Positions 2 through 19,257 of a stretch of DNA of 64,000 nt are shown piece after piece (the stretch's first letter is position 1; every line of letters starts with the position of its first letter). This DNA is from an uncultured Spirochaetia bacterium (GTDB lineage: Bacteria; Oederibacteriota; PGYV01). The notes beneath the pieces are model-generated. The model saw only the letters and a program-made list of their open reading frames with translations, was not told the origin of the DNA and made no database searches. The stretch covers positions 19,568-83,567 of the forward strand of contig CAYQIS010000003.1 of assembly GCA_964417645.1 (NCBI GenBank), given 5' to 3'. The position numbers were made by a program, and so were the translations under genes.

Positions 2-469
2 CTTTCAGGTTCTTTTATGGTTTATAAAGGTTTTTTTTTGCAGGGCGCTTTAATAATTGCTTTTTCCAGTATTTTTGACATGGTGGACGGCGCTCTTGCA
101 CGAAGGACAAACCAAAAAAGCAGGTTCGGCGGTTTTCTTGACTCAACAACTGACAGGATAAGCGAAGCAGGTATTTTTTTGGCGGTTCTGGCGTTTTACC
201 TGAATGCCGGTGATAAAACAGCCGTAATCTTGTCATATCTGGCAATGTTTCTGGGATTTATGGTAAGCTACCTGCGTGCCCGGGCCGGAGGTCTTAAAAT
301 AGACTGCAGCAGGGGGCTTTTTACAAGACCCGAAAGAATGATTGTCATACTTTTGGGGCTGCTTACAGGATTTGTAAAACCCGCGCTGGCTGTGATTGTT
401 TTCGGTTCTTTGTTTACAGTTATTCAGCGGTTTATGCTTGTCAACGAACAGGCAAAAAATATAAAGTAA
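2..469 (+). CDS. pgsA: CDP-alcohol phosphatidyltransferase (phosphatidylinositol-phosphate synthase-like), 5' end outside window
   Basis: Motif DMVDGALAR...G..LDSTTDR; frame is open back to the window start; lies next to ino1 and patA/pimA-like genes. Confidence 0.85.
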
Positions 470-2440: not shown

Positions 2441-3565
2441 ATGCCTTCATTCAAAAAAATTGCCATATGCACCCCTTATTATTATCCTCTTTTCGGAGGT
2501 GTTCAGGAATATGTTTACCATCTTAAACACGAATATCAAAAACTTGGTTTTACCGTAAAAGTAATTACGGGAAATTTCAGCAGCACTCCCTCACATGATG
2601 AAAATGACGTTATAAGAATAGGCAGAGGCATTCCTTTCATGGTCAACGGCTCCACAGGAAGAATAATATTAATCCGCAGGGGAGAAAAAGTCAGGCAGAT
2701 GCTTGAAAGGGAAAATTTTGACATAATTCATTTCCAGGAGCCTTTTGTTCCGTTTTTGTCACACGACATCATTAAATATTCCAAATCCGTTAACATAGCA
2801 ACTTTTCACGCAAATTTTGAAAGCAACATTTATTACAGATTTGGAAGACACTTTTTAAAACCTTTGTGGGAAAAACTTCACGGTAAAATAGCGGTATCTC
2901 CTTCGGCAAAAAGCAGCATAAGCAGGTACTTTAACGGAAGAGACATTGAAATAATACCCAACGGGGTTTCAACATCAAGGTTTAATCCGGAAGGAAAAAA
3001 AATCGCCAAATTTAACGATGACTTCACAAACATACTTTTTACGGGAAGAATAGAAAAAAGAAAAGGGCTTATTTATCTTATTAAAGCTTTTGCAATTCTG
3101 AAAAAGGATCACCCAAAAACAAGACTTATAGTTCTTGGAAAAGGACCGCTTCAAGAGCGTCTGAAAAAAATGGTTTTAAAAGAAAAAATATCCGATGTTC
3201 ATTTTGAAGGTTTCGTAAAACTTGAAGAATTGGCTGATTATTACAGAACGGCGCACATTTACTGTTCACCTGCTCTTTTTGGCGAAAGTTTTGGTATTGT
3301 CCTTCTTGAAGCAATGGCAAGCGGCATACCCGCTGTTGCTTTTAATATCAGCGGCTACAATGATGTTGTTTCCAATCTTGACGACGGACTTCTGGCAATA
3401 CCGCGGGATGTTCATGACCTGCACGAAAAACTTGATCTTCTTGTTTCTCATCCGGAAATAGCCAAAGAACTGGGACGCCGAGGTTATGAAAAAGCCCAAA
3501 AATTCAGATGGGATATTATAGCCGCAAAAAACATTCAGTTTTATGAAAAATTTTTTAGGAAATAA
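2441..3565 (+). CDS. pimA: GT4 glycosyltransferase, phosphatidylinositol alpha-mannosyltransferase-like
   Basis: PYYYPLFGGVQEYV, HFQEPFVP, ATFH, GRIEKRKG and ESFGIVLLEAMA motifs closely resemble PimA; operon context. Confidence 0.75.
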   Translation: MPSFKKIAICTPYYYPLFGGVQEYVYHLKHEYQKLGFTVKVITGNFSSTPSHDENDVIRIGRGIPFMVNGSTGRIILIRRGEKVRQMLERENFDIIHFQEPFVPFLSHDIIKYSKSVNIATFHANFESNIYYRFGRHFLKPLWEKLHGKIAVSPSAKSSISRYFNGRDIEIIPNGVSTSRFNPEGKKIAKFNDDFTNILFTGRIEKRKGLIYLIKAFAILKKDHPKTRLIVLGKGPLQERLKKMVLKEKISDVHFEGFVKLEELADYYRTAHIYCSPALFGESFGIVLLEAMASGIPAVAFNISGYNDVVSNLDDGLLAIPRDVHDLHEKLDLLVSHPEIAKELGRRGYEKAQKFRWDIIAAKNIQFYEKFFRK

Positions 3566-3570
3566 TCCAG

Positions 3571-4449
3571 ATGACATATACAACAATTAAATTTGCGGTT
3601 TTTTTAATAACCGCTTTGCCAATAAATTTCATATATTGGATTGCAATTAACATAACACATATATTCTTTTTTTTCTGGAAAGAGAAAAAGATCAACACTG
3701 AAAGCAATTACAAAACCATACTGAAAGATATTCTTGGCAGAGAACCTTTGATTGCAGAAATTAAAAATCTTGCTTTTCAAAACCGTGTTCATTACGGAAA
3801 ATTCAGCGCCGAATTTCTTTATCTTCCAAAGCTTGCAAAAAAGGATATTTTTCCGGATATAACAAATAAGGATTCCATAGACCTTGCGCTTAAAAGAGGC
3901 CGCGGCCTTATTATAGGCACACTGCACTTTTCAAACTGGGACATTGCCGGCATTGTAATATCAAAATATTGCAAAAATGTATGGGCGGTTGCCGATGATT
4001 TGGGCGGAGATTTTTCGCGGTTTGTACAGGAAACCCGCGGAAAATACGGCATAAATATAATACTTCCGAATAAAAATCTTAAAGATGTTTATCGCTGTCT
4101 TGAAAATAACGGTGTTTTAAATGTTCTTATAGACAGGCCGGTTTCTGCCGAAGATAAAAACGGCACCGTTATTGACTTTTTTGGAAAAAAAGCGCGGGTA
4201 ACATCTTTCGCCGCAAGACTTGCCCTTAAAACAGGCGCTGATGTTGCCGTGGGCTGGACAGTAAGAGAAAACGGCAAATTCACCGCCTTTTGTTCGGATA
4301 TAATTAAATATAATGCAACAGGCAACACATCGGAAGACATACGCAATCTTACGCAGCTTATGTTTAAAGAAGCCGAAAAAGCCGTCAGAAAAAATCCGGA
4401 ACAGTGGTACATGTTCAGAAAATTTTTTATTGACCAGGAGACAAAATGA
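3571..4449 (+). CDS. second PatA/LpxL-family acyltransferase
   Basis: LHFSNWDIAG, LIDRP, DFFG, PEQWYMF motifs. Confidence 0.85.
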   Translation: MTYTTIKFAVFLITALPINFIYWIAINITHIFFFFWKEKKINTESNYKTILKDILGREPLIAEIKNLAFQNRVHYGKFSAEFLYLPKLAKKDIFPDITNKDSIDLALKRGRGLIIGTLHFSNWDIAGIVISKYCKNVWAVADDLGGDFSRFVQETRGKYGINIILPNKNLKDVYRCLENNGVLNVLIDRPVSAEDKNGTVIDFFGKKARVTSFAARLALKTGADVAVGWTVRENGKFTAFCSDIIKYNATGNTSEDIRNLTQLMFKEAEKAVRKNPEQWYMFRKFFIDQETK

Positions 4450-5276: not shown

Positions 5277-7127
5277 TTAAAATTGATCAGGTGTTACGTA
5301 ATCACCTTTCGCGGCCTTAAGGTCCAAAAGCCTTTTTTTCTGGGCTTCCAATTCTTCAAATACTTTTTCCGGTGTTCCCTTTACGCCTTTATAAACAGCG
5401 ATTATTCTGTCCATCTTGGCAACATTTTCATTAACACGTATCATAAACTGCTCTTTGTAATCCGCTTCGGTAAAATCCTTGTTCAAAAGCTCCTTAAACA
5501 GTTTTTTAAGTATGTCATACTTCGGTATTATCCCCAGGGGCGTTTTTATGCCGTCAATGTCTCCAGATGCCTTTAGTTCCATCCATTTCAGCCATACTCT
5601 TTTATCCTTTACGCCGTTTAGCCATTTGCCTTCCTTATTTCGCAGGAAATAATTTACACCGAATATTTTAGGCACTGTTTTTAAGCCTTTAGGAAATTCC
5701 AAATAACACTCAAGGTATTTTGCCATGGATATTGAAAGAAACTCCAAATTTGACATTAAATTAAACACTCTGTTGCCTTCCTGCCCAATTGTTGCGGCGG
5801 TTGTTTCGGATTCAAGGGATGCTCCCATTGTTATAACGCCATGGTCCCAATTAAACGCTTCGCATACAGGAACCGAGGTGTTGCTGTCACGGCCGCCGTA
5901 AATTATGCCTTTTAATTCAACACCTTTTTTATTGTGAAGATTTTTGTCGCAGTTTTTGAGTTTTTCAAGACTTATTGAATAGCGGGCATTTTTATGGGCA
6001 TAATCTATGGGTTTACCGGTTGCATCGGTTTTTCCTTTAAACCATTCTCCGGAATAGTTAATTCCCCTTTCAGGTTCTGGCTTTTTATCCCCAAGCCAGC
6101 GTGGAGTTCCGTTTTCATCAAGAACATTTCCAAATATAACATCACCGGGTGTTGTAAGGACCTTGTATATCAAAGGGTCGCCTGCTTCATTTATATCCTG
6201 AATAATTCCGAATATGCCGCGCTCAACATTTGCCGCATGAACTTTGCCGTCTATCTTACGGAGATATGCAAGATCATCTCCAACTATTGTTTCGCCTTCA
6301 ACCATTGCGGTTGAAGTTTTTCCGCACATTGAAGGATACGCTCCCGCAAAATAAGAAACTCTGCCTTTTGGTCCTTTAACCCCCATAATAAACATATGCT
6401 CCGCCAGCCAGCCCTCGCGGGAAGCTTTTTGTATAGCAAGTCTTAAAGCAAGTTTTTTAAAACCTACAGACTGCCCGGCATATTGTGTGTTGCAGCTGTA
6501 AACAGTTTCTGTTTTTAAATCCATATATACGCGGCGGTCGGCAACATTCTTACTGTTCATACGCTCGTCAACTTCACCTGTTGCATGTACAACCTTAAAA
6601 AAGCTTGAAGGTTTTGCTTTTTTAAAGGCCTCATATGCCTTCCTGTAAAGTATGTTTTCCGAATGAACCACATAATATGAATCCGTTATCTGAACTGCCG
6701 GAATGTAAAAAGGCGAATCCGTAGGACCAAGGGAATAAAAAAGCACAAACATATCGCGGCCTTTCATAATCCCTTTCATTTTTGAATAAACATCTTTAAG
6801 CCCTTCCTCCCGGTCAATTCCGTTTAAACCCTCGGGAGCTTCCCCGGGTTCAAAAAGAAATTTTGTGTTTTTAGGGTCTCTTCCCTGATCATAAATTCCG
6901 TCGTGATGTATTGTATGACCTTTTATCTTAAGAGCTTTTTCCTCACCCTTTTCTATGGCCATCTTTTTTGCCATTTCTTCATCAGCTTTGCTGTCATTAA
7001 ATACATATATGCCGTCAGGTTCCAGAAGTTCCGCATATTTTGCCACAAATTCCATAAGAACCGGATTTTTAAGGGCTTCAAGCCTTTTATAACTGTCTTT
7101 TCTGCATTTATTTTTAAGTAATTCCAT
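5277..7127 (-). CDS. pckG: GTP-dependent phosphoenolpyruvate carboxykinase
   Basis: YAG..GFKKLALR, WLAEHM, PSMCGKT, VGDDLA motifs; start moved to the ATG at 7127 behind SD GGAGG. Confidence 0.92.
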   Translation of the reverse strand: MELLKNKCRKDSYKRLEALKNPVLMEFVAKYAELLEPDGIYVFNDSKADEEMAKKMAIEKGEEKALKIKGHTIHHDGIYDQGRDPKNTKFLFEPGEAPEGLNGIDREEGLKDVYSKMKGIMKGRDMFVLFYSLGPTDSPFYIPAVQITDSYYVVHSENILYRKAYEAFKKAKPSSFFKVVHATGEVDERMNSKNVADRRVYMDLKTETVYSCNTQYAGQSVGFKKLALRLAIQKASREGWLAEHMFIMGVKGPKGRVSYFAGAYPSMCGKTSTAMVEGETIVGDDLAYLRKIDGKVHAANVERGIFGIIQDINEAGDPLIYKVLTTPGDVIFGNVLDENGTPRWLGDKKPEPERGINYSGEWFKGKTDATGKPIDYAHKNARYSISLEKLKNCDKNLHNKKGVELKGIIYGGRDSNTSVPVCEAFNWDHGVITMGASLESETTAATIGQEGNRVFNLMSNLEFLSISMAKYLECYLEFPKGLKTVPKIFGVNYFLRNKEGKWLNGVKDKRVWLKWMELKASGDIDGIKTPLGIIPKYDILKKLFKELLNKDFTEADYKEQFMIRVNENVAKMDRIIAVYKGVKGTPEKVFEELEAQKKRLLDLKAAKGDYVTPDQF

Positions 7128-7194
7128 AAATGATCCTCCTGTGGACAAAATTTAAAATATTATCCATTTTTTAATCCATTTTTCAAGGCAATAA

Positions 7195-7728
7195 TTATTC
7201 TTCTATACATGAAAGATCCCCTTCTTCCATATTATAAAAAAGAGGGGCAACAGCAAGGTTTGGATATCTTGTCCTTATCCTTTTAACTTCTGAAATTACA
7301 AAATCAAGTTCATCCCCTATTTCAAATATAGGCGCAAAACTGTCAAAATGCTGTTCGGCTGTTTTTTTCTGCCAGCCGGCTTTTACCAAGCCCTTTATAT
7401 AACTTTCTTTTCTGTTATGAAGACCGCACATACCGCAGTCATCATGGCCTATTATTGCAATTGCCTTAACTTTGCCAACAGCAACAGCATAAGAAATTAT
7501 AAAATCACTGTGTTTCATATTTCCGCCTGCGGTTCTTATTACATAAGCAAAATTATCCGGAACATGCAAAGCTTTTCTGTTGTCCATGCACATTCCAACC
7601 AATATTTCCGCTGATTCATAAGGTCTGCCTTCTTCGGCAAAATTATGATAACGTATCAGTGTTTCCACCGGTGTTCCGATATATTTTTTTGGAATATCGG
7701 TTTCTTTATGAATTTGTATTATTCTCAT
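7195..7728 (-). CDS. beta-class carbonic anhydrase
   Basis: CMDNR and GHDDCG zinc-ligand motifs, RTAGG. Confidence 0.88.
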   Translation of the reverse strand: MRIIQIHKETDIPKKYIGTPVETLIRYHNFAEEGRPYESAEILVGMCMDNRKALHVPDNFAYVIRTAGGNMKHSDFIISYAVAVGKVKAIAIIGHDDCGMCGLHNRKESYIKGLVKAGWQKKTAEQHFDSFAPIFEIGDELDFVISEVKRIRTRYPNLAVAPLFYNMEEGDLSCIEE

Positions 7729-7767: not shown

Positions 7768-7796
7768 AATATACAAATAAACACAGGATAAGTCAA
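7768..7796 (-). promoter_or_regulatory. sigma70-type promoter of the carbonic anhydrase gene
   Basis: TTGACT-N17-TATATT on the minus strand. Confidence 0.6.
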
Positions 7797-7800
7797 ACAT

Positions 7801-8349
7801 TTAGATTTTATTATTTTTTTTATCCATAAGTATATACTGAGAAGCTTCCCATAAAGTTTCGGTGGTAAAATCCGGCTTTTCCCTTTTTTCATAAAAATGC
7901 TTTGCCCCGTGCCCGGATAAAAGATATATTGTTTTTGTTCCGGCTTTTTTTCCCATATTTATATCATGGGGATGATCGCCTATTACCCAGGATTCTCCAA
8001 GATTTATCGGATTTTCTTCGCAAATTTTTCTGATAAAAAAATCAGAGGGTTTCCTGCATAAGCAATTAACATCTTTTGCATGAGGACAATGAAAAACGCG
8101 ATTTATTTTAATATTTTCTTTTTTAAGGCGCTCCAAAAAATATTTATTAAATTCCATATACTGTTCTTCCGAAAAAAAACCTTCTCCAATGCCTGCCTGA
8201 TTGGTTATCACATACAAATCATAATATTTTTGCAACAAAAAAAGAGCTTTTATTGACCCTTTAATAAATACAAGATCATCTTTTTTATAAATATATCCTC
8301 TGTCTTCAATTATTGTTCCGTCACGGTCCAAAAAAAGAGCGTTTTTCAT
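7801..8349 (-). CDS. HAD-IIIA phosphatase, GmhB/histidinol-phosphatase family
   Basis: FLDRDGTI, TNQAGI, CPH....C.CRKP, IGD..D motifs. Confidence 0.88.
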   Translation of the reverse strand: MKNALFLDRDGTIIEDRGYIYKKDDLVFIKGSIKALFLLQKYYDLYVITNQAGIGEGFFSEEQYMEFNKYFLERLKKENIKINRVFHCPHAKDVNCLCRKPSDFFIRKICEENPINLGESWVIGDHPHDINMGKKAGTKTIYLLSGHGAKHFYEKREKPDFTTETLWEASQYILMDKKNNKI

Positions 8350-9509
8350 ACTTTAATTTGCGATTTATATAAAATAAAAATTCCTGTAACAGAAGCAAGC
8401 AGTGTCATAAGAAAAACATTGCTGTAAGTTCCGCTTATATCCCTTATTAACCCGGAAATCAAAATACCCGTAAAAGCAGCCGCTCCATAAGCGGTGAAAA
8501 CAAAACCGTAAACTTTTCTGTAATTTTCAGATCCAAATATTTTTGCCGTGGCAACAGGAGCCAAAGCAAGCCATCCGCCAAGACTGAACCAAAGCATACA
8601 AAAAGAAATATAGAATAACACTTTCAAGCTGCCGTTAATCAGCATACCTGTTACAGATGCTGTTATTATTATGACAAAATTTAAAATTGCCGTGTTTTTA
8701 AATCCGGCTTTATCGGTTAACATTCCGAATAAAGGCCTGCCCAATCCGTTGAAAGCCGCAAATAATGACACTGCCGCGGCGGCTCCTGCAGGCGTAAGTC
8801 CGGCAAGTTCCTGCGCAAGCGGGCCTGAAATTCCTATTGCTGTAAGTCCTGACAATGCTCCAAGAGCATAAACAATCCATAAAATTCTGAAATTATCCTG
8901 AGAAATTAAATTTTTTAAATTTTCAATCAATGAAGCATTATCCGCAATATTATCCTCAATTTTTCTGTTTTTAATAAATATTCCAAGTATTGAAACAATA
9001 ACAAGAAAAAACACACCCGTTAATTTAAATGTATTGCTTAAACCGTATAATTCTATTGCTTTTTCAAGAACTGGTGCCGTAATTATTGCCGATAACCCGA
9101 ATCCGGACAAAACCAAACCTACGGCAAGACCGCGGTTTTTCCCATACCACTCCATTACCGCAGCCATTGGTATTCCATAAACTATTCCTATTCCGGCTCC
9201 CACAAAAAACCCGTAAAAAAAAGTTATCATCCATATGTTTTTGACAAATCCGGACAATGCCCATCCAAGACCTATGAATAAAGCCCCGATAAAAATTAAT
9301 TTTTTATGTTTTATTTTCCCTATATATTTTCCCGTAAAAAGCATTGTAATTGAATAAACAATAAGCAAAACCATAAAAGGAAGTCCGCTTTCAAACGCGC
9401 CTATTAACAGCTCGTTTTGTAAAGGCTTTCTGAAAATACTCCATGAATATACCGAACCAAGGCATAACATTATAAAAAATCCCGCGGGAACAATAAATGT
9501 TTTTGCCAT
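8346..9509 (-). CDS. MFS transporter, oxalate:formate antiporter (OFA)-like
   Basis: LGSVYSWSIF, GIGIVY..P, GLAVG..LSGFG, NGLGRPLFG, YGFVFTAYG; about 12 hydrophobic segments. Confidence 0.85.
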   Translation of the reverse strand: MAKTFIVPAGFFIMLCLGSVYSWSIFRKPLQNELLIGAFESGLPFMVLLIVYSITMLFTGKYIGKIKHKKLIFIGALFIGLGWALSGFVKNIWMITFFYGFFVGAGIGIVYGIPMAAVMEWYGKNRGLAVGLVLSGFGLSAIITAPVLEKAIELYGLSNTFKLTGVFFLVIVSILGIFIKNRKIEDNIADNASLIENLKNLISQDNFRILWIVYALGALSGLTAIGISGPLAQELAGLTPAGAAAAVSLFAAFNGLGRPLFGMLTDKAGFKNTAILNFVIIITASVTGMLINGSLKVLFYISFCMLWFSLGGWLALAPVATAKIFGSENYRKVYGFVFTAYGAAAFTGILISGLIRDISGTYSNVFLMTLLASVTGIFILYKSQIKV

Positions 9510-9524
9510 TCCCTGTTTTCCTCC

Positions 9525-11384
9525 TTAATTTAAAATACCTGAATAATCTTCAACACTTCCTTTTGATTCAAAACATTCTATTATTTCCATTCCTTTTTTG
9601 GACAGCTGCGGCGTTTTAAATTTTTTAAGCTCCTTGTCAAAAAATTCATACAGCATTTTTTCTCCGAATTGAAATGCTTCTTTACCGACTTCAGGCTGAA
9701 GACTTACATCTATAAGAAAATCAGGAATTGATATTCCCTCAACTTTAAGTTCTTTTCTTATATAACCAAGAAGCGGGGTTCCGGCTTTTTTTAATTCTGA
9801 TTCTTCAAATTTTCTTCCGCCTCTTCTTGCAAGATATTCCCTTACAAACCACTGCGGCATAAAACCTGTTTTCCAGGCGCCTACATATTGATTCGGAAAA
9901 AGAACATTACACGTGTTATTATTTTTTATAAATTGTTCCAGAAGCATGTTGGCGTGTTTAACCGGACTCCCTGTTAAAAACGGACCGTAAGTTCCGATTC
10001 CTTCACTGCTCATTCCTTCGGAACTTATTATGCTTGGATTATCATGTCCGCGGGGCGCAACCAGTCTCCATAACCAAGCCAATGCGGGAGGTAATATGTG
10101 AAAAAAACCTATTATTCCATAAGAAGGATTTTTGGAAGTGCAAGGAGGCGTTCTTATGCCAAAACTTCTGTAGTCTATTGCCGTTTCGGAGTTCTCAATA
10201 TTTGGAATAAGCTCTCTGGGAAAAATCACTCTTGGATTGGGGCATCTTTTTGAAGGCGCGTCTTCAATATGTTCCCAAATAAGGCATGTTGATCCTGCAA
10301 CAGCCTGAATATTAAGAAATATCATGGGCTTTGACGGATGTATGCACATTTTTTCAAAATGAGGATTCATTCCGTAATGTTCAATATGATTTACTCTTAC
10401 AAACCAAGCATTTTCCGCGTCCATTACATGAAGTTTTCCGTCATTTTTTTGTATTGAAGTGTGACAAATTGACATATCATCGGTAACAGGATGTATTTCA
10501 CATTCATTTATAAGTGACGTTTCTATCACCTTTCCGTCAATTATATTCTCGGCAATTCTCATTTTGCTGTTTTCGGTGTGCTCCATATATTCGTTCATCT
10601 CGCTTTTTCCGCCGCCGCTTGCGCCTTCATGAAGTATTGTTATTGAATTATCATAAGGGGTAATAAGTTTTGTTGAAGACGCATGAAGAGTAAGCCATCC
10701 TTCTTTTTCCCCTATGGAAAGAAGCGCCCCATATATGCCTTTTTTTGCGCTTGGCCCCGGATAAAGATTATAGGAAAAAATTTCATAAAGATTTTCTGTT
10801 CTGTTATGAACCACCACCTGTTTTCCTGAAAAATGTGTATGTCTGAACACAGGGGCCAAATATATTATTATTTTTGGAGAAAATTCACGGTTTAAATCCG
10901 CTTCATTCATTAAATTCTGTAAATCAGCAACGGCCATGGCAAAAAAAGCGCAGTTAAGAGGACCAACAAAAAGAGACTGAATTTTTACCGGATCCCTTCC
11001 CGTTATAAAAGGCATTACAATTACATCTGTTTCAGAAAACCATTTAATTGTATCTTTTCTAAAATCAGGAAAATCCATTTTAAACACATCTTTAAATCTT
11101 GGTTTGTCGGATTCAAATTCATCCCCTACAAATGTACAATTTGGATCCCTTCTTCTCATATATGGTTCCTGATAATTTACCGCAACACCGTTTTTACATA
11201 GTGTAACATCGGCTTCCTTAAACTTTTTACCCTGTGATGTTTCGGAAAAAACTTCAAACTGATTCAAACCGTTTCCTGTTGCAAGTTTTATAAGGTCTTC
11301 CCTGCTTTTTGGAAAAACGCAGGATTTTGATTTAAGCAGTGCATCCTTTAATTCTTTTGGTATGTTCCAGTCATTTATACTCAT
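9525..11384 (-). CDS. DUF4914-family protein (PEPCK-like fold)
   Basis: NYQEPYMRRRDP, P-loop HEGASGGGKSE, TDDM, AENAWF, CPNPR motifs; SD GGAGG. Confidence 0.8.
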   Translation of the reverse strand: MSINDWNIPKELKDALLKSKSCVFPKSREDLIKLATGNGLNQFEVFSETSQGKKFKEADVTLCKNGVAVNYQEPYMRRRDPNCTFVGDEFESDKPRFKDVFKMDFPDFRKDTIKWFSETDVIVMPFITGRDPVKIQSLFVGPLNCAFFAMAVADLQNLMNEADLNREFSPKIIIYLAPVFRHTHFSGKQVVVHNRTENLYEIFSYNLYPGPSAKKGIYGALLSIGEKEGWLTLHASSTKLITPYDNSITILHEGASGGGKSEMNEYMEHTENSKMRIAENIIDGKVIETSLINECEIHPVTDDMSICHTSIQKNDGKLHVMDAENAWFVRVNHIEHYGMNPHFEKMCIHPSKPMIFLNIQAVAGSTCLIWEHIEDAPSKRCPNPRVIFPRELIPNIENSETAIDYRSFGIRTPPCTSKNPSYGIIGFFHILPPALAWLWRLVAPRGHDNPSIISSEGMSSEGIGTYGPFLTGSPVKHANMLLEQFIKNNNTCNVLFPNQYVGAWKTGFMPQWFVREYLARRGGRKFEESELKKAGTPLLGYIRKELKVEGISIPDFLIDVSLQPEVGKEAFQFGEKMLYEFFDKELKKFKTPQLSKKGMEIIECFESKGSVEDYSGILN

Positions 11385-11393
11385 TTTTCCTCC

Positions 11394-11439
11394 AAAAAAA
11401 AAATCCGGTTAAAGCGGATTAAACCGCAATAACCGGATT
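11394..11439 (-). terminator. intrinsic terminator (attenuator) directly before the SD of the DUF4914 gene
   Basis: Minus strand AATCCGGTTA-TT-GCGG-TTTAAT-CCGC-TT-TAACCGGATT, then a T-run, then GGAGG. Confidence 0.8.
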
Positions 11440-11511
11440 ATTATATGACAAGCCCGTTTTAAACGTGCTTCTCATCAAATCTTCCAGATAATTTTAACTT
11501 ATCATTTAAAA

Positions 11512-11540
11512 TTTATATACCATAAATGTTTTATTGTCAA
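11512..11540 (-). promoter_or_regulatory. sigma70-type promoter for the DUF4914 leader
   Basis: TTGACA-N17-TATAAA on the minus strand. Confidence 0.75.
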
Positions 11541-11551
11541 ATGTTTATGAT

Positions 11552-11917
11552 CTAATTTATTTCTATTTTTTTATCCATTGTAAAAACTATTATTCTTTCG
11601 CCTGTTTTTGTGCTTATATCGGTGTGCATGGAGACAACCCCGGCACCCGATATCTCTTCTATGTTTTTTTCAAGCATTTTTCTGGAACTTTCAAGAAGTC
11701 TTACCCTTGTCTGTTTCACCAGCATTCTGCCTTCGCCGGGGTCTTTTGCCAATGTTTTTTCGGCTGCGGTAAGAACACCGGTTAAACGAACAAATATAAT
11801 ATCATCCAAAATTGTGACATTTGTATCTTCAGGGCCGCGGCCCATATGTTCTTTTTCAAATTTTATTATATATTCCCTGATTTTTGCTTCTGTCTGGCCT
11901 TTTGATAATTTTTTCAT
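11552..11917 (-). CDS. DUF2294 / MpsC-family protein
   Basis: EKEHMGRGP, LTAAEK.L, VKQTR..L, HTDISTKTGER motifs typical of the family. Confidence 0.85.
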   Translation of the reverse strand: MKKLSKGQTEAKIREYIIKFEKEHMGRGPEDTNVTILDDIIFVRLTGVLTAAEKTLAKDPGEGRMLVKQTRVRLLESSRKMLEKNIEEISGAGVVSMHTDISTKTGERIIVFTMDKKIEIN

Positions 11918-11924
11918 GATTTAT

Positions 11925-11953
11925 ATTTTATATTTCATATTCTTTACAGTCAA
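11925..11953 (-). promoter_or_regulatory. promoter of the DUF2294 gene (near-leaderless transcript)
   Basis: TTGACT-N17-TAAAAT; 7 nt separate the -10 from the ATG; no SD. Confidence 0.5.
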
Positions 11954-12054
11954 TATTGTTTTCAAATAAAACATCCCGTTCCATTTTTAAACACATTTTG
12001 TTTTAAGGTTTAACATAATCAAAAAATCTTTATTAAATATATGGTTTTTTTGTC

Positions 12055-12070
12055 TGGCATATCTTATGCA
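12055..12070 (+). promoter_or_regulatory. putative sigma54 (-24/-12) promoter of hsp20
   Basis: TGGCATATCTTATGCA has GG and GC at consensus spacing. Confidence 0.55.
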
Positions 12071-12115
12071 TATTATTTTATGGAAGTTAAAAAAAATTTA
12101 CAGGAGGTGGGTTTT

Positions 12116-12538
12116 ATGAAACTCATCAGAAGGTCTGATTTTGCAAGACCAACGCTCTTTGGGGATCTGTTTGACGATTTTTTCAGAACAGATATCCCGG
12201 CAGTACGTTCCATGATGCCCGCTATTGACATTGTGGAGGAAAAAGATCATTACACCATTAAAGCTGATCTCCCGGGCATGAACCAGAAAGACATTAAAGT
12301 TGAACTTGATGAAGGAGTTTTAAGAATTTCCGGAGAGAGAAACGAAGAGAAAAAAGAACAGGACAAAGACAATCACTATCGCTACTATGAAAGGTCTTTT
12401 GGAAGCTTCGAACGCCGTTTTGTGCTTCCAAGGGAAGTAAAAGAAGACGCAATAGAAGCAAAGTATGAAAACGGTGTTCTGAAAATCACAATTCCAAAAG
12501 CGGAAACAAGAAAAGCCAAAGAAATAGCTGTTAAATAA
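12116..12538 (+). CDS. small heat shock protein, Hsp20/alpha-crystallin family
   Basis: PAIDI.E, ADLPG, ERSFGSFER.F.LP, A.YENGVL.I.IPK; start moved to 12116 behind AGGAGGT. Confidence 0.93.
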   Translation: MKLIRRSDFARPTLFGDLFDDFFRTDIPAVRSMMPAIDIVEEKDHYTIKADLPGMNQKDIKVELDEGVLRISGERNEEKKEQDKDNHYRYYERSFGSFERRFVLPREVKEDAIEAKYENGVLKITIPKAETRKAKEIAVK

Positions 12539-12550
12539 AAACATTCGTTG

Positions 12551-12587
12551 AAAATAATAACCCCGCTTTAAGCGGGGTTATTATTTT
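12551..12587 (+). terminator. intrinsic terminator after hsp20
   Basis: 17-bp perfect stem AAAATAATAACCCCGCT/AGCGGGGTTATTATTTT. Confidence 0.85.
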
Positions 12588-12649
12588 GTATTTGAATGAT
12601 AATTTTCGCCTGATATAATTAGAATATAAATTATTTAAAGGCGGATTTT

Positions 12650-13057
12650 ATGAATAAAAAAGAAGAAAATGTTGATTTTTTAAATCTTATTCTTATGCTT
12701 AATCAAAATGCTCTTATATATCTTGGAGAATCCCCGCGTTTTATAGGAGGAATAAAAAAATCAAATCTGCCTCTTGCCCGACAGACAATAAATATGATTA
12801 AAGCAATATCGGATAAAACCCGCGGAAATCTGACAGCCGGAGAATCAAAACTTATATTCAGAATACTCGGAGAACTTCAAAAAAAATATGTTATGGCTTC
12901 CGGACTTATGAAACCGGAAACATCCGAAGATAAAAAGGCACAGGCGGTAAAAAAAGTGGCGGAAAAACATGCGGAAAACCTTGATGAGGTTCTTGACAAA
13001 CTTAAAGACAGCGAACTTGCGGAAATGCTGGATGAATTAAAAAAGAACGCCAAATGA
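12650..13057 (+). CDS. DUF1844 domain protein
   Basis: ALIYLGE...NLPLARQTI.M...TRGNL pattern. Confidence 0.7.
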   Translation: MNKKEENVDFLNLILMLNQNALIYLGESPRFIGGIKKSNLPLARQTINMIKAISDKTRGNLTAGESKLIFRILGELQKKYVMASGLMKPETSEDKKAQAVKKVAEKHAENLDEVLDKLKDSELAEMLDELKKNAK

Positions 13058-13557
13058 TATTGCCGGAAAAAATAAACAATATTTCCAAAATAGGGCTGAT
13101 TTCAGACACTCATGTACCTTCACGTTTAAGGTATTTGCCTTCGATTATTCATAAAATATTCAATGATGTTGATGCAATAATTCACGCCGGCGATTTTACT
13201 TCAAAAGATGTAATAACGGAACTTGAATCTGTTGCCCCATTATTCGGAGTTATGGGCAATATGGATCCTCATGAAATTCATTTACCTCAGCAAAAAACAA
13301 TTCTTGTAAACGAAAAATTTCTTTTTGCAATCTGCCATGGAGCAGGACTGCATTCAACAACCGAAGAAAGAATGTTTAATAAATTTAAAGAAATAAGACC
13401 TAATGCAATAATTTACGGGCATACACATATTCCAAAAATATCAAAAAAAGAAGAAATATTGCTTGTTAATCCGGGAAGTTTATGCTCTGCTGAGCCAAGT
13501 GTCGGTCTAATAGTTTTTAATGGAGATATTTTAATACCTGAAATAATTAAACTGTGA
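13054..13557 (+). CDS. metallophosphoesterase, YfcE/MJ0936 family
   Basis: SDTH, HAGD, GNMD, CHG, GHTH, NPGS motifs. Confidence 0.9.
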   Translation: MILPEKINNISKIGLISDTHVPSRLRYLPSIIHKIFNDVDAIIHAGDFTSKDVITELESVAPLFGVMGNMDPHEIHLPQQKTILVNEKFLFAICHGAGLHSTTEERMFNKFKEIRPNAIIYGHTHIPKISKKEEILLVNPGSLCSAEPSVGLIVFNGDILIPEIIKL

Positions 13558-19150: not shown

Positions 19151-19165
19151 ATTATCCTTTTTCAA

Positions 19166-19253
19166 GGGACACCGGCAACACCCCGGAAAATCCTTTTACC
19201 GCTGCTCCCTTCCGGGCCTGACGGGGTTCAAGGCTGCCGGGTGTGCCGGGCCC
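19166..19253 (-). ncRNA. ffs: small signal recognition particle RNA (4.5S)
   Basis: Minus strand contains the CCGTCAGGCCCGGAAGGGAGCAGCGG domain IV inside a long GC-rich hairpin; canonical position upstream of dnaX. Confidence 0.92.
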
Positions 19254-19257
19254 ATTT

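Follow-up and report, generated by a model that had tools for sequence, protein, structure and literature searches.

A gene of the MpsC/DUF2294 family (Pfam PF10057) and a conserved leader RNA that ends in an intrinsic terminator are found side by side in a stretch of 64,000 nucleotides from an uncultured Spirochaetia bacterium (GenBank assembly GCA_964417645.1, contig CAYQIS010000003.1, positions 19,568 to 83,567). This whole stretch is termed the window, and window coordinates follow its own numbering. The MpsC protein probably binds the leader at a helix that competes with the terminator, and would in this way control read-through of RNA polymerase into an inorganic-carbon regulon. Several lines of evidence point in this direction. 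The leader is present downstream of MpsC in the majority of related loci, the genes behind it vary, its helices display compensated base changes, and in some relatives the MpsC domain is fused to the receiver of a response regulator.

The MpsC gene and its leader in the window

The features of the MpsC-leader region, with the evidence for each, are:

11552 to 11917, minus strand: MpsC/DUF2294 gene, 121 amino acids, the proposed trans-acting regulator (open reading frame and PF10057 match)
11925 to 11953, minus strand: promoter-like site of the MpsC gene, TTGACT-17-TAAAAT (consensus match only)
11512 to 11540, minus strand: promoter-like site of the downstream unit, TTGACA (11540-11535)-17-TATAAA (11517-11512), between the MpsC stop codon and the leader (sequence)
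11431 to 11487, minus strand: conserved leader element, P0 and P1 (covariance-model matches of 65.9-69.2 bits, covariation, conserved columns)
11394 to 11439, minus strand: intrinsic terminator, AAUCCGGUUAUUGCGG-loop-CCGCUUUAACCGGAUU plus U-tract (terminator scan, folding energies)

The window protein matches PF10057 over its whole length (residues 6-116 aligned to positions 2-111 of the 111 in the profile), its 125.4 bits exceed the cut-off of 23 (E 1.4e-36), and it therefore belongs to the family. No NCBIfam model names it. There is one MpsC copy in the window. The first-pass annotation had described the gene as an mpsC without mpsAB, and this is borne out by tblastn, which finds no DabA, DabB or SbtA in the 64 kb. 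The window gene is accordingly not placed in an mpsA-mpsB-mpsC (dabB-dabA) locus as in staphylococci. The mpsABC co-location is specific to staphylococci and is thus not a trait that defines the family (PMC6689103).

A near-leaderless promoter had also been proposed for the gene, and the site is present as a consensus match. The -10 box ends 7 nt before the ATG, and no Shine-Dalgarno sequence is seen before the ATG on inspection of the sequence; a leaderless MpsC mRNA is plausible for these two reasons. The promoter scan of the window is at chance level, with 7 sites vs 6.7 in shuffled sequences. Downstream, the U-tract of the terminator runs into GGAGG (11393-11389), the ribosome-binding site of the DUF4914 gene that follows. 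The order first described, in which MpsC precedes a terminator-containing leader, a carbonic anhydrase and two genes with a phosphoenolpyruvate carboxykinase (PEPCK) fold, is found as such, with all of these on the same strand.

Co-occurrence of the leader with MpsC genes

Co-occurrence of DUF2294 with the leader had been suggested as a check of a regulatory link, and its outcome is strongly positive. Metagenome contigs were scanned with an MpsC alignment. This gave 80 loci with 50-68% identity (numbered with the prefix L), and 72 of them have at least 160 nt of sequence past the gene. The second of three covariance models of the leader finds a same-strand leader downstream of MpsC in 49 of the 72 loci. 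With the third model, L091, L088 and (with filters off) L098 also score at least 25 bits, which brings the count to 52, and five weaker matches that stand exactly at the expected place (L076, L058, L049, L125 and L097) bring it to 57. E-values from these models are rough, as the models were short-calibrated. In the 52 loci matched by the two models the leader starts 32-457 nt past the true MpsC stop codon, with a median of 69. Thus, a regulator gene that adjoins a terminator-containing leader, as expected of an antitermination system, is found in the window and in 52-57 of the 72 related loci.

The association is also seen from the side of the target genes. PEPCK genes with MpsC upstream have a leader model match in 23 of 26 cases, vs none of five PEPCK loci without MpsC (Fisher p = 3e-4); the remaining three of the 26 show leader variants by eye. 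The five were picked via PEPCK alone, and have neither an MpsC gene within 4 kb nor a leader. An exact DNA-pattern scan of 185,579 species genomes, which is independent of MpsC, gave 34 matches, approximately the number estimated for chance, with a pattern that is too strict for divergent leader types. Two of these are real leaders, and both have MpsC immediately upstream. As a control of the covariance model, 32 unrelated loci chosen by the core sequence pattern score no higher than 21.9 bits, and the two true copies there score 43-48 bits.

Close MpsC relatives (70-87% identity) display an identical layout of MpsC, gap and operon. The first gene past the gap varies among them, the operons being DUF4914-AIRC-MFS-HAD, beta-carbonic anhydrase-PEPCK, DUF4914-AIRC-Sua5-MFS::HAD or Sua5-MFS (MFS, major facilitator superfamily; HAD, haloacid dehalogenase). 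Relatives whose MpsC is 73-87% identical retain the succession MpsC-leader-terminator though the first gene switches between DUF4914, beta-carbonic anhydrase and Sua5.

In 33 of the 52 loci, a promoter-like site of the form TTGACN-16..18-TANNNT separates the leader from the MpsC stop codon. Because of this intervening site, the leader in these loci is predicted to be the 5' end of a separate transcript, with MpsC outside the controlled unit. Regulators usually sit outside the unit they control. Clostridia and Bacilli also carry the module. Acetoanaerobium noterae has the order MpsC-leader-MFS (third model, termed R3, E 1e-4) and Anoxybacillus amylolyticus the order DUF2294-leader-SbtA; in both the leader begins 2-4 nt past the MpsC stop codon, and MpsC and its target would therefore be on one transcript in these two Firmicutes.

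The number and order of the elements differ in some loci. Four leader copies are present within 4.8 kb in L124 (512-565 on the minus strand; 2518-2570, 3285-3338 and 4245-4298 on the plus strand), together with a single MpsC gene and a DDE transposase. The L124 leaders precede FlgB-like and small multidrug-export-like genes, which are outside the inorganic-carbon theme. L121 has two leader copies and a single MpsC gene. Tandem MpsC genes with a leader between them are found in L005 (8001-9080), L047, L052 and L069, so that the second copy lies inside the controlled unit, and in L120 and L099 a leader is upstream of MpsC. These arrangements suggest autoregulation. On plasmid pDSM15939_1 of Anoxybacillus amylolyticus (L129, 5790-5995), approximately 190 nt of untranslated sequence separate a strong promoter-like site from the DUF2294 start; no Rfam family matches there at the gathering score.

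Structure and covariation of the leader RNA

The window leader folds with a z-score of -5.2. Its helix P0 is formed by GGAAGAUU (11485-11478) paired with AAUAAUCC (11442-11435) around a purine internal loop, and encloses the hairpin P1 (about 11475-11445). The consensus of P0 is GGNAGAYU paired with RRUARNCC. In the close relatives, the gaps between MpsC and the operon have a common motif, which consists of GGAAGAUU, a hairpin, AAUAAUCCGG and then the terminator.

The covariance model was seeded with seven copies and rebuilt twice, and it recovers the leader in distant loci. At least three sequence types are found across many phyla, and these differ by compensated changes; for example, GGAAGAUU/AAUAAUCC is replaced by GGCAGAUU/AAUAGGCC or by GGAAGACU/AGUAGGCC. 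Examples of leader copies are:

Window, 11394-11506, minus strand
L001, 8664-8780
L098, 6409-6465
L127, 6368-6450

In an alignment of 55 leader sequences, 93.1% of paired cells can pair vs 76.3% in shuffles, and both sides change in 11 of 13 pairs. The covariation score is 0.555 vs 0.246 in shuffles, a value reached by none of 500 shuffles, in an alignment that was fitted to the model and is hence biased towards the structure. When the partners are slid by 1-3 columns, the score is at most 0.137, which argues that the covariation signal is real. The unpaired bases A6, G7, G124 and A137 are invariant or nearly so. Rfam has no relevant match for any of the three leader types, at gathering or at permissive thresholds. 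The leader is a previously undescribed structured RNA family.

Competition with the terminator and a proposed mechanism

The 5' arm of the terminator and the 3' strand of P0 (AAUAAUCC) have the sequence AAUCC in common. The nascent window RNA, up to AAUAAUCCGG, is calculated to fold into P0 and P1 at -20.7 kcal/mol. For the full leader, the terminator state is at -38.5 kcal/mol vs -35.1 for a state in which P0 is forced, and the terminator is thus favoured by 3.4 kcal/mol. With P0 enforced, the stem that remains stops short of the U-tract. According to these folding predictions, P0 and the terminator are mutually exclusive. Accordingly, the leader has the second property expected in antitermination, a conserved RNA element that overlaps the terminator and competes with it. 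Read-through would hence be expected with any factor that stabilizes P0/P1 by more than about 3.4 kcal/mol.

The following series of events is proposed. The leader would be transcribed from its own promoter, and P0, enclosing P1, would fold first. The 3' strand of P0 would double as the first part of the terminator 5' arm, so that with no factor present the terminator would win and transcription would stop. MpsC bound to P0/P1 would hold the helix and block the base of the terminator, and RNA polymerase would read into the operon. The mode would be that of protein-dependent antitermination, in which we infer the direction of control. Since the controlled genes supply or consume inorganic carbon, the most likely input is the status of CO2/bicarbonate, directly or by way of a metabolite that reflects it.

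A further-reaching version is possible, if doubtful. It says that DUF2294 is a new class of RNA-binding antiterminators that itself senses CO2 or bicarbonate, with its invariant Arg, Lys, His and Asp residues perhaps providing an anion site or a carbamylated lysine for this, and that forms an inorganic-carbon switch with the leader.

The MpsC protein family

The window protein and 55 homologues from many phyla have 24 invariant columns, with the motifs MGRGP, RL.GVLT and HTDIST.TGER. R27, R44, K68, R71, H98 and R108 are among the conserved residues. An AlphaFold2 model of high confidence (pLDDT 94.6, pTM 0.85) has the order alpha-beta-beta-alpha-alpha-alpha-beta-beta, and MpsC is predicted to be a soluble alpha/beta protein. 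A sequence search of the PDB with MpsC gives no match, and no second Pfam family recurs among the 56 family members at E-values up to 10. A PF10057 profile search of 1.84 billion representative proteins gives 3143 clusters (50% identity) at E-values up to 1e-3, nearly all of 85-290 amino acids. The family occurs in Omnitrophota, Planctomycetota, Verrucomicrobiota, Elusimicrobiota, Latescibacterota, Desulfobacterota and Firmicutes.

Two of the longer cluster representatives, P0360 and P0308, are fusions of Response_reg and MpsC with receiver residues intact. In P0360 the two domains match with E-values of 7.6e-31 and 9.8e-33, respectively (loci L136, 5001-5768, and L137, 1490-2257). In both fusions MpsC is C-terminal to the receiver, and the window protein stands alone. 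Judged by domain order, this places MpsC in the position of a response-regulator output domain. Behind the P0360 gene come a leader (22.5 bits, E 6e-5 in 16.5 kb), a terminator and genes for a DASS transporter and a Usp protein; the target RNA is thus present despite phosphorylation being the input at this locus. Near the fusion gene there is also a gene for a HAMP histidine kinase.

The first-pass annotation regarded DUF2294 as a regulator and not a transporter subunit. The receiver fusions support this, as does the finding that S. aureus mpsC is dispensable for MpsAB function, both in S. aureus and in E. coli, and that its deletion has no phenotype (PMC6689103). Expression of S. aureus mpsA is down-regulated at 5% CO2 (PMC6689103). 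This fits induction at low CO2, and no link to MpsC is established. The literature searched does not link DUF2294 to RNA or to regulation, and only its staphylococcal papers were of use.

A distant DUF2294 gene (25% identical) on an Alicyclobacillus dauci plasmid (NZ_CP104065.1; L135, 3132-3987) is overlapped by an HxlR-type helix-turn-helix gene. This pair lies between the divergent hxlAB and fdhF, and a terminator-like hairpin abuts the fdhF ribosome-binding site. The pair may represent a second regulatory use of the family.

Genes behind the leader

In the window the following genes and sites are found past the leader:

9525 to 11384, minus strand: DUF4914 gene (P-loop, distantly PEPCK-like), the first behind the leader (PF16260, E 1.8e-269)
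8346 to 9509, minus strand: MFS transporter of the lactate/oxalate-formate type (family matches)
7801 to 8349, minus strand: HAD-IIIA phosphatase (family matches)
7768 to 7796, minus strand: a further promoter-like site, upstream of the beta-carbonic-anhydrase-like gene
7195 to 7728, minus strand: beta-carbonic-anhydrase-like gene (CxDxR and HxxC zinc motifs kept)
5277 to 7148, minus strand: PEPCK-GTP gene (family matches)

The DUF4914 protein has a weak similarity to PEPCK_ATP. In related loci, where open reading frames were obtained by simple chaining on the plus strand and compared with reference proteins by blastp, the first open reading frame past MpsC is PEPCK-GTP in 26 of 64, DUF4914 in four, a second MpsC in three and AIRC/PurE in two. 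The beta-carbonic anhydrase and PEPCK-GTP genes are directly behind the leader in close relatives (L001-L004, L011 and L030). Elsewhere this position is taken by the bicarbonate transporter SbtA (L097), by NuoL-like DabB followed by DabA (L098, PF10070 E 1.9e-269, and also L125), by Pro_CA_2 (L117), by a biotin carboxylase (L092) or by a carboxyltransferase (L090). Other first genes encode citrate synthase and aminotransferases. The commonest families further downstream are ATP-grasp, biotin carboxylase, SAICAR synthase and chorismate synthase.

From this gene content, the common denominator of the genes behind the leader appears to be the supply or use of CO2/bicarbonate. The CO2 theme of the first-pass annotation thus holds for the genes, which are inorganic-carbon transporters and carboxylation enzymes; it is from this regulon that we infer the signal itself.

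Several details of the neighbourhood are of interest in their own right. The beta-carbonic-anhydrase-like protein of the window (177 amino acids) has a weak Pro_CA match (E 3.5e-7) with the zinc motifs retained as CMDNR and HDDC, and among close relatives its gene is always paired with PEPCK. A cassette of DUF4914, PurE-like AIRC, Sua5/YciO-like, MFS and HAD phosphatase genes recurs (window, 7801-11384; L009, 8537-12630; L012, 1333-6321, where MFS and HAD are fused) and looks like an uncharacterized pathway for a carboxylated or phosphorylated metabolite. On the other side of MpsC, genes for HSP20, DUF1844 and a metallophosphoesterase (12041-13557, plus strand) are divergent from it, and this arrangement is kept in all close relatives (L001, L009, L011 and L030). 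A small bacterial signal recognition particle RNA (RF00169, 70.3 bits), an ordinary housekeeping gene, is present at 19159-19257 on the minus strand.

Comparison with known systems

The novelty lies in the protein family, the RNA family and the regulon, whereas the class of mechanism proposed here is already known. The MpsC-leader pair belongs to none of the HutP, GlcT-RAT and ANTAR systems, whose defining RNA-binding domains proved absent on testing.

HutP of Bacillus subtilis is a small protein that stands alone; its gene directly precedes the intrinsic terminator in front of the structural genes of the hut operon, and HutP activated by its ligand binds the leader RNA and prevents termination. 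MpsC genes are similarly placed, and in Acetoanaerobium and Anoxybacillus the MpsC gene and leader would be on one transcript, as is hutP. However, MpsC has no sequence or fold similarity to HutP. Its leader is a closed helix-hairpin with a purine internal loop, whereas the HutP target consists of UAG repeats, and in most loci a promoter-like site separates MpsC from the leader.

The target of BglG, SacY, LicT and GlcT, the ribonucleic antiterminator (RAT), is also a short hairpin with conserved internal loops. Its 3' side overlaps the terminator 5' arm, and its stabilization leads to read-through. The regulator gene can adjoin upstream, as in glcT-RAT-ptsG. In contrast, MpsC has no CAT or PRD domains, the sequence of its leader is unrelated to RAT, and its regulon consists of inorganic-carbon and carboxylation genes, whereas theirs consists of sugar phosphotransferase system genes. 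P0360 and P0308 have the layout of receiver plus output domain seen in the ANTAR regulators AmiR, NasT and EutV, which act by RNA-binding antitermination, and the P0360 gene precedes a leader and terminator as in those systems. The output domain differs, being PF10057 with a predicted alpha/beta sandwich, vs the helical ANTAR domain, and most MpsC proteins have no receiver.

S. aureus MpsC (SAOUHSC_00414, the third gene of mpsABC) is of the same Pfam family and has the same link to genes of inorganic-carbon supply, and the window protein has 44% identity with a copy from a staphylococcal plasmid. The staphylococcal gene is downstream of dabB/dabA behind a weak terminator, with no leader detected, whereas the window gene precedes the unit it would control and has no mpsAB. 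Riboswitches that act by termination, such as those for fluoride, ZTP and guanidine, resemble the leader in having a compact, covarying aptamer-like fold, an overlapping terminator and a location in the 5' untranslated region of transporter or metabolic genes. They differ in that the leader is tied to one particular adjacent protein gene, has no Rfam match and has no ligand known.

Weighing the explanations

A number of observations weigh against antitermination by MpsC. A likeness of the protein to RNA-binding folds, which the first-pass annotation had suggested looking for, did not emerge. Foldseek comparison of the AlphaFold2 model with the PDB gives nothing significant (best E 0.02, TM at most 0.43), and only PF10057 was found in a search for known RNA-binding domains or folds (CAT, ANTAR, HutP, TRAP and PyrR). 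The Foldseek hits to uL23, S6 permutants, Bet3/TRAPPC3 and designed proteins are insignificant, and no fold kinship with these is claimed. MpsC is only mildly basic, with a pI of 9.2 in the window protein and a family median of 7.8. In staphylococci MpsC is at the end of dabBA, no leader is detected beside the S. pettenkoferi plasmid copy, and the S. aureus deletion is silent. Off-theme targets exist, among them FlgB-like, GreA-like and CBS proteins and a small export protein. Nearly all loci were ascertained via MpsC, so that the estimate for leaders without MpsC rests on two pattern matches and five PEPCK controls, and metagenome contigs cannot tell whether a leader-bearing genome is without MpsC. 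In addition, the structured RNA looks like a riboswitch in its covariation, its invariant loop bases and its terminator platform.

The last point leads to the main rival, in which the leader is a self-sufficient riboswitch for a small ligand, for example bicarbonate or a compound from the PEP/oxaloacetate node, and MpsC is a linked accessory that does not bind RNA, perhaps one that handles a ligand or takes part in carbon metabolism. The leader does have a covarying structured aptamer and an expression platform: its fold is compact, unpaired bases are invariant and the terminator overlaps the closing helix. The several leaders per single MpsC gene (four in L124, two in L121) would also be understandable, as would the want of a recognizable RNA-binding fold in MpsC. 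A riboswitch should be distributed independently of any one neighbouring protein gene, however, and the leader is not (52-57 of 72 loci, 0 of 5 and 2 of 2), although the MpsC-independent sample is small. The riboswitch explanation leaves unaccounted for the presence of MpsC just upstream of the leader, outside the controlled unit, in about 75-80% of loci despite varying genes, the absence of the leader at all five PEPCK loci without MpsC, and a leader behind a receiver-MpsC regulator that already has a phosphorylation input. It is considered unlikely. Alternatively, the adjacent promoter may be where MpsC exerts control, through DNA or RNA polymerase and either by itself or jointly with a DNA-binding protein, in which case the leader would be a layer of regulation in its own right. 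A sigma-70-like promoter directly past MpsC in 33 of 52 loci would agree with this, as would the overlap of the A. dauci paralogue with an HxlR-type gene and the fact that response-regulator output domains are mostly DNA-binding. Yet the sole conserved non-coding element beside MpsC is a transcribed, covarying RNA, the leaders of Acetoanaerobium and Anoxybacillus begin so close to the stop codon that there is no room for a promoter, and MpsC has no helix-turn-helix or other DNA-binding signature; such a role is improbable.

Another possibility is that MpsC has a structural or catalytic role in inorganic-carbon metabolism and no regulatory one, for instance as one of the subunits of the Mps/DAB pump or in association with PEPCK, its neighbourhood then denoting shared function alone. 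The family name, which comes from staphylococcal mpsABC, speaks for this. The order NuoL-DabA-hypothetical-DUF2294 on the S. pettenkoferi plasmid is in keeping with it, and the neighbours of MpsC were counted as always carbon-metabolism genes. Nevertheless, the pump works without S. aureus mpsC (PMC6689103), DabC, which is the third subunit of DAB1, is a membrane protein unrelated to MpsC, the very different genes behind MpsC have no single enzyme partner in common, and the receiver fusions argue for signalling. This role is judged quite improbable. An identity of DabC with MpsC was itself considered and rejected, since DabC spans the membrane and belongs to no Pfam family (bioRxiv 10.64898/2026.05.01.722082). 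Finally, the stem-loop might be a mere transcription terminator of MpsC and the module a case of ordinary conservation of gene order. A terminator is indeed downstream of MpsC, and in two Firmicutes directly past its stop codon. But a promoter-like site usually intervenes between stop codon and leader, the conserved part is P0/P1 upstream of the terminator and not the terminator, the terminator abuts the ribosome-binding site of the next gene, and the module persists across phyla while flanking genes change, which makes this explanation hardly credible. Antitermination by MpsC at the leader is therefore the reading preferred here.

Implications

CO2 dependence affects growth, virulence and antibiotic response, and to our knowledge inorganic-carbon sensing in non-photosynthetic bacteria is largely open. 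The DUF2294/MpsC family is widespread, yet no function has been assigned to it since its naming, and the knockout in S. aureus is silent. The family can now be put to the test as a concrete pair, a 14-kDa protein and an RNA of some 55 nt that is read out through a terminator. A candidate regulon is also defined: PEPCK, SbtA, DabAB, carbonic anhydrases, biotin carboxylases and PurE. If the proposal is true, MpsC would represent a new protein fold among the few attenuation proteins, the leader a new Rfam RNA family, and the two together a possible inorganic-carbon-responsive switch for synthetic biology. If MpsC is a CO2-sensing antiterminator, heterotrophs and anaerobes from many phyla would have in it a means to control their carbonic anhydrases, carboxylases and pumps for dissolved inorganic carbon.

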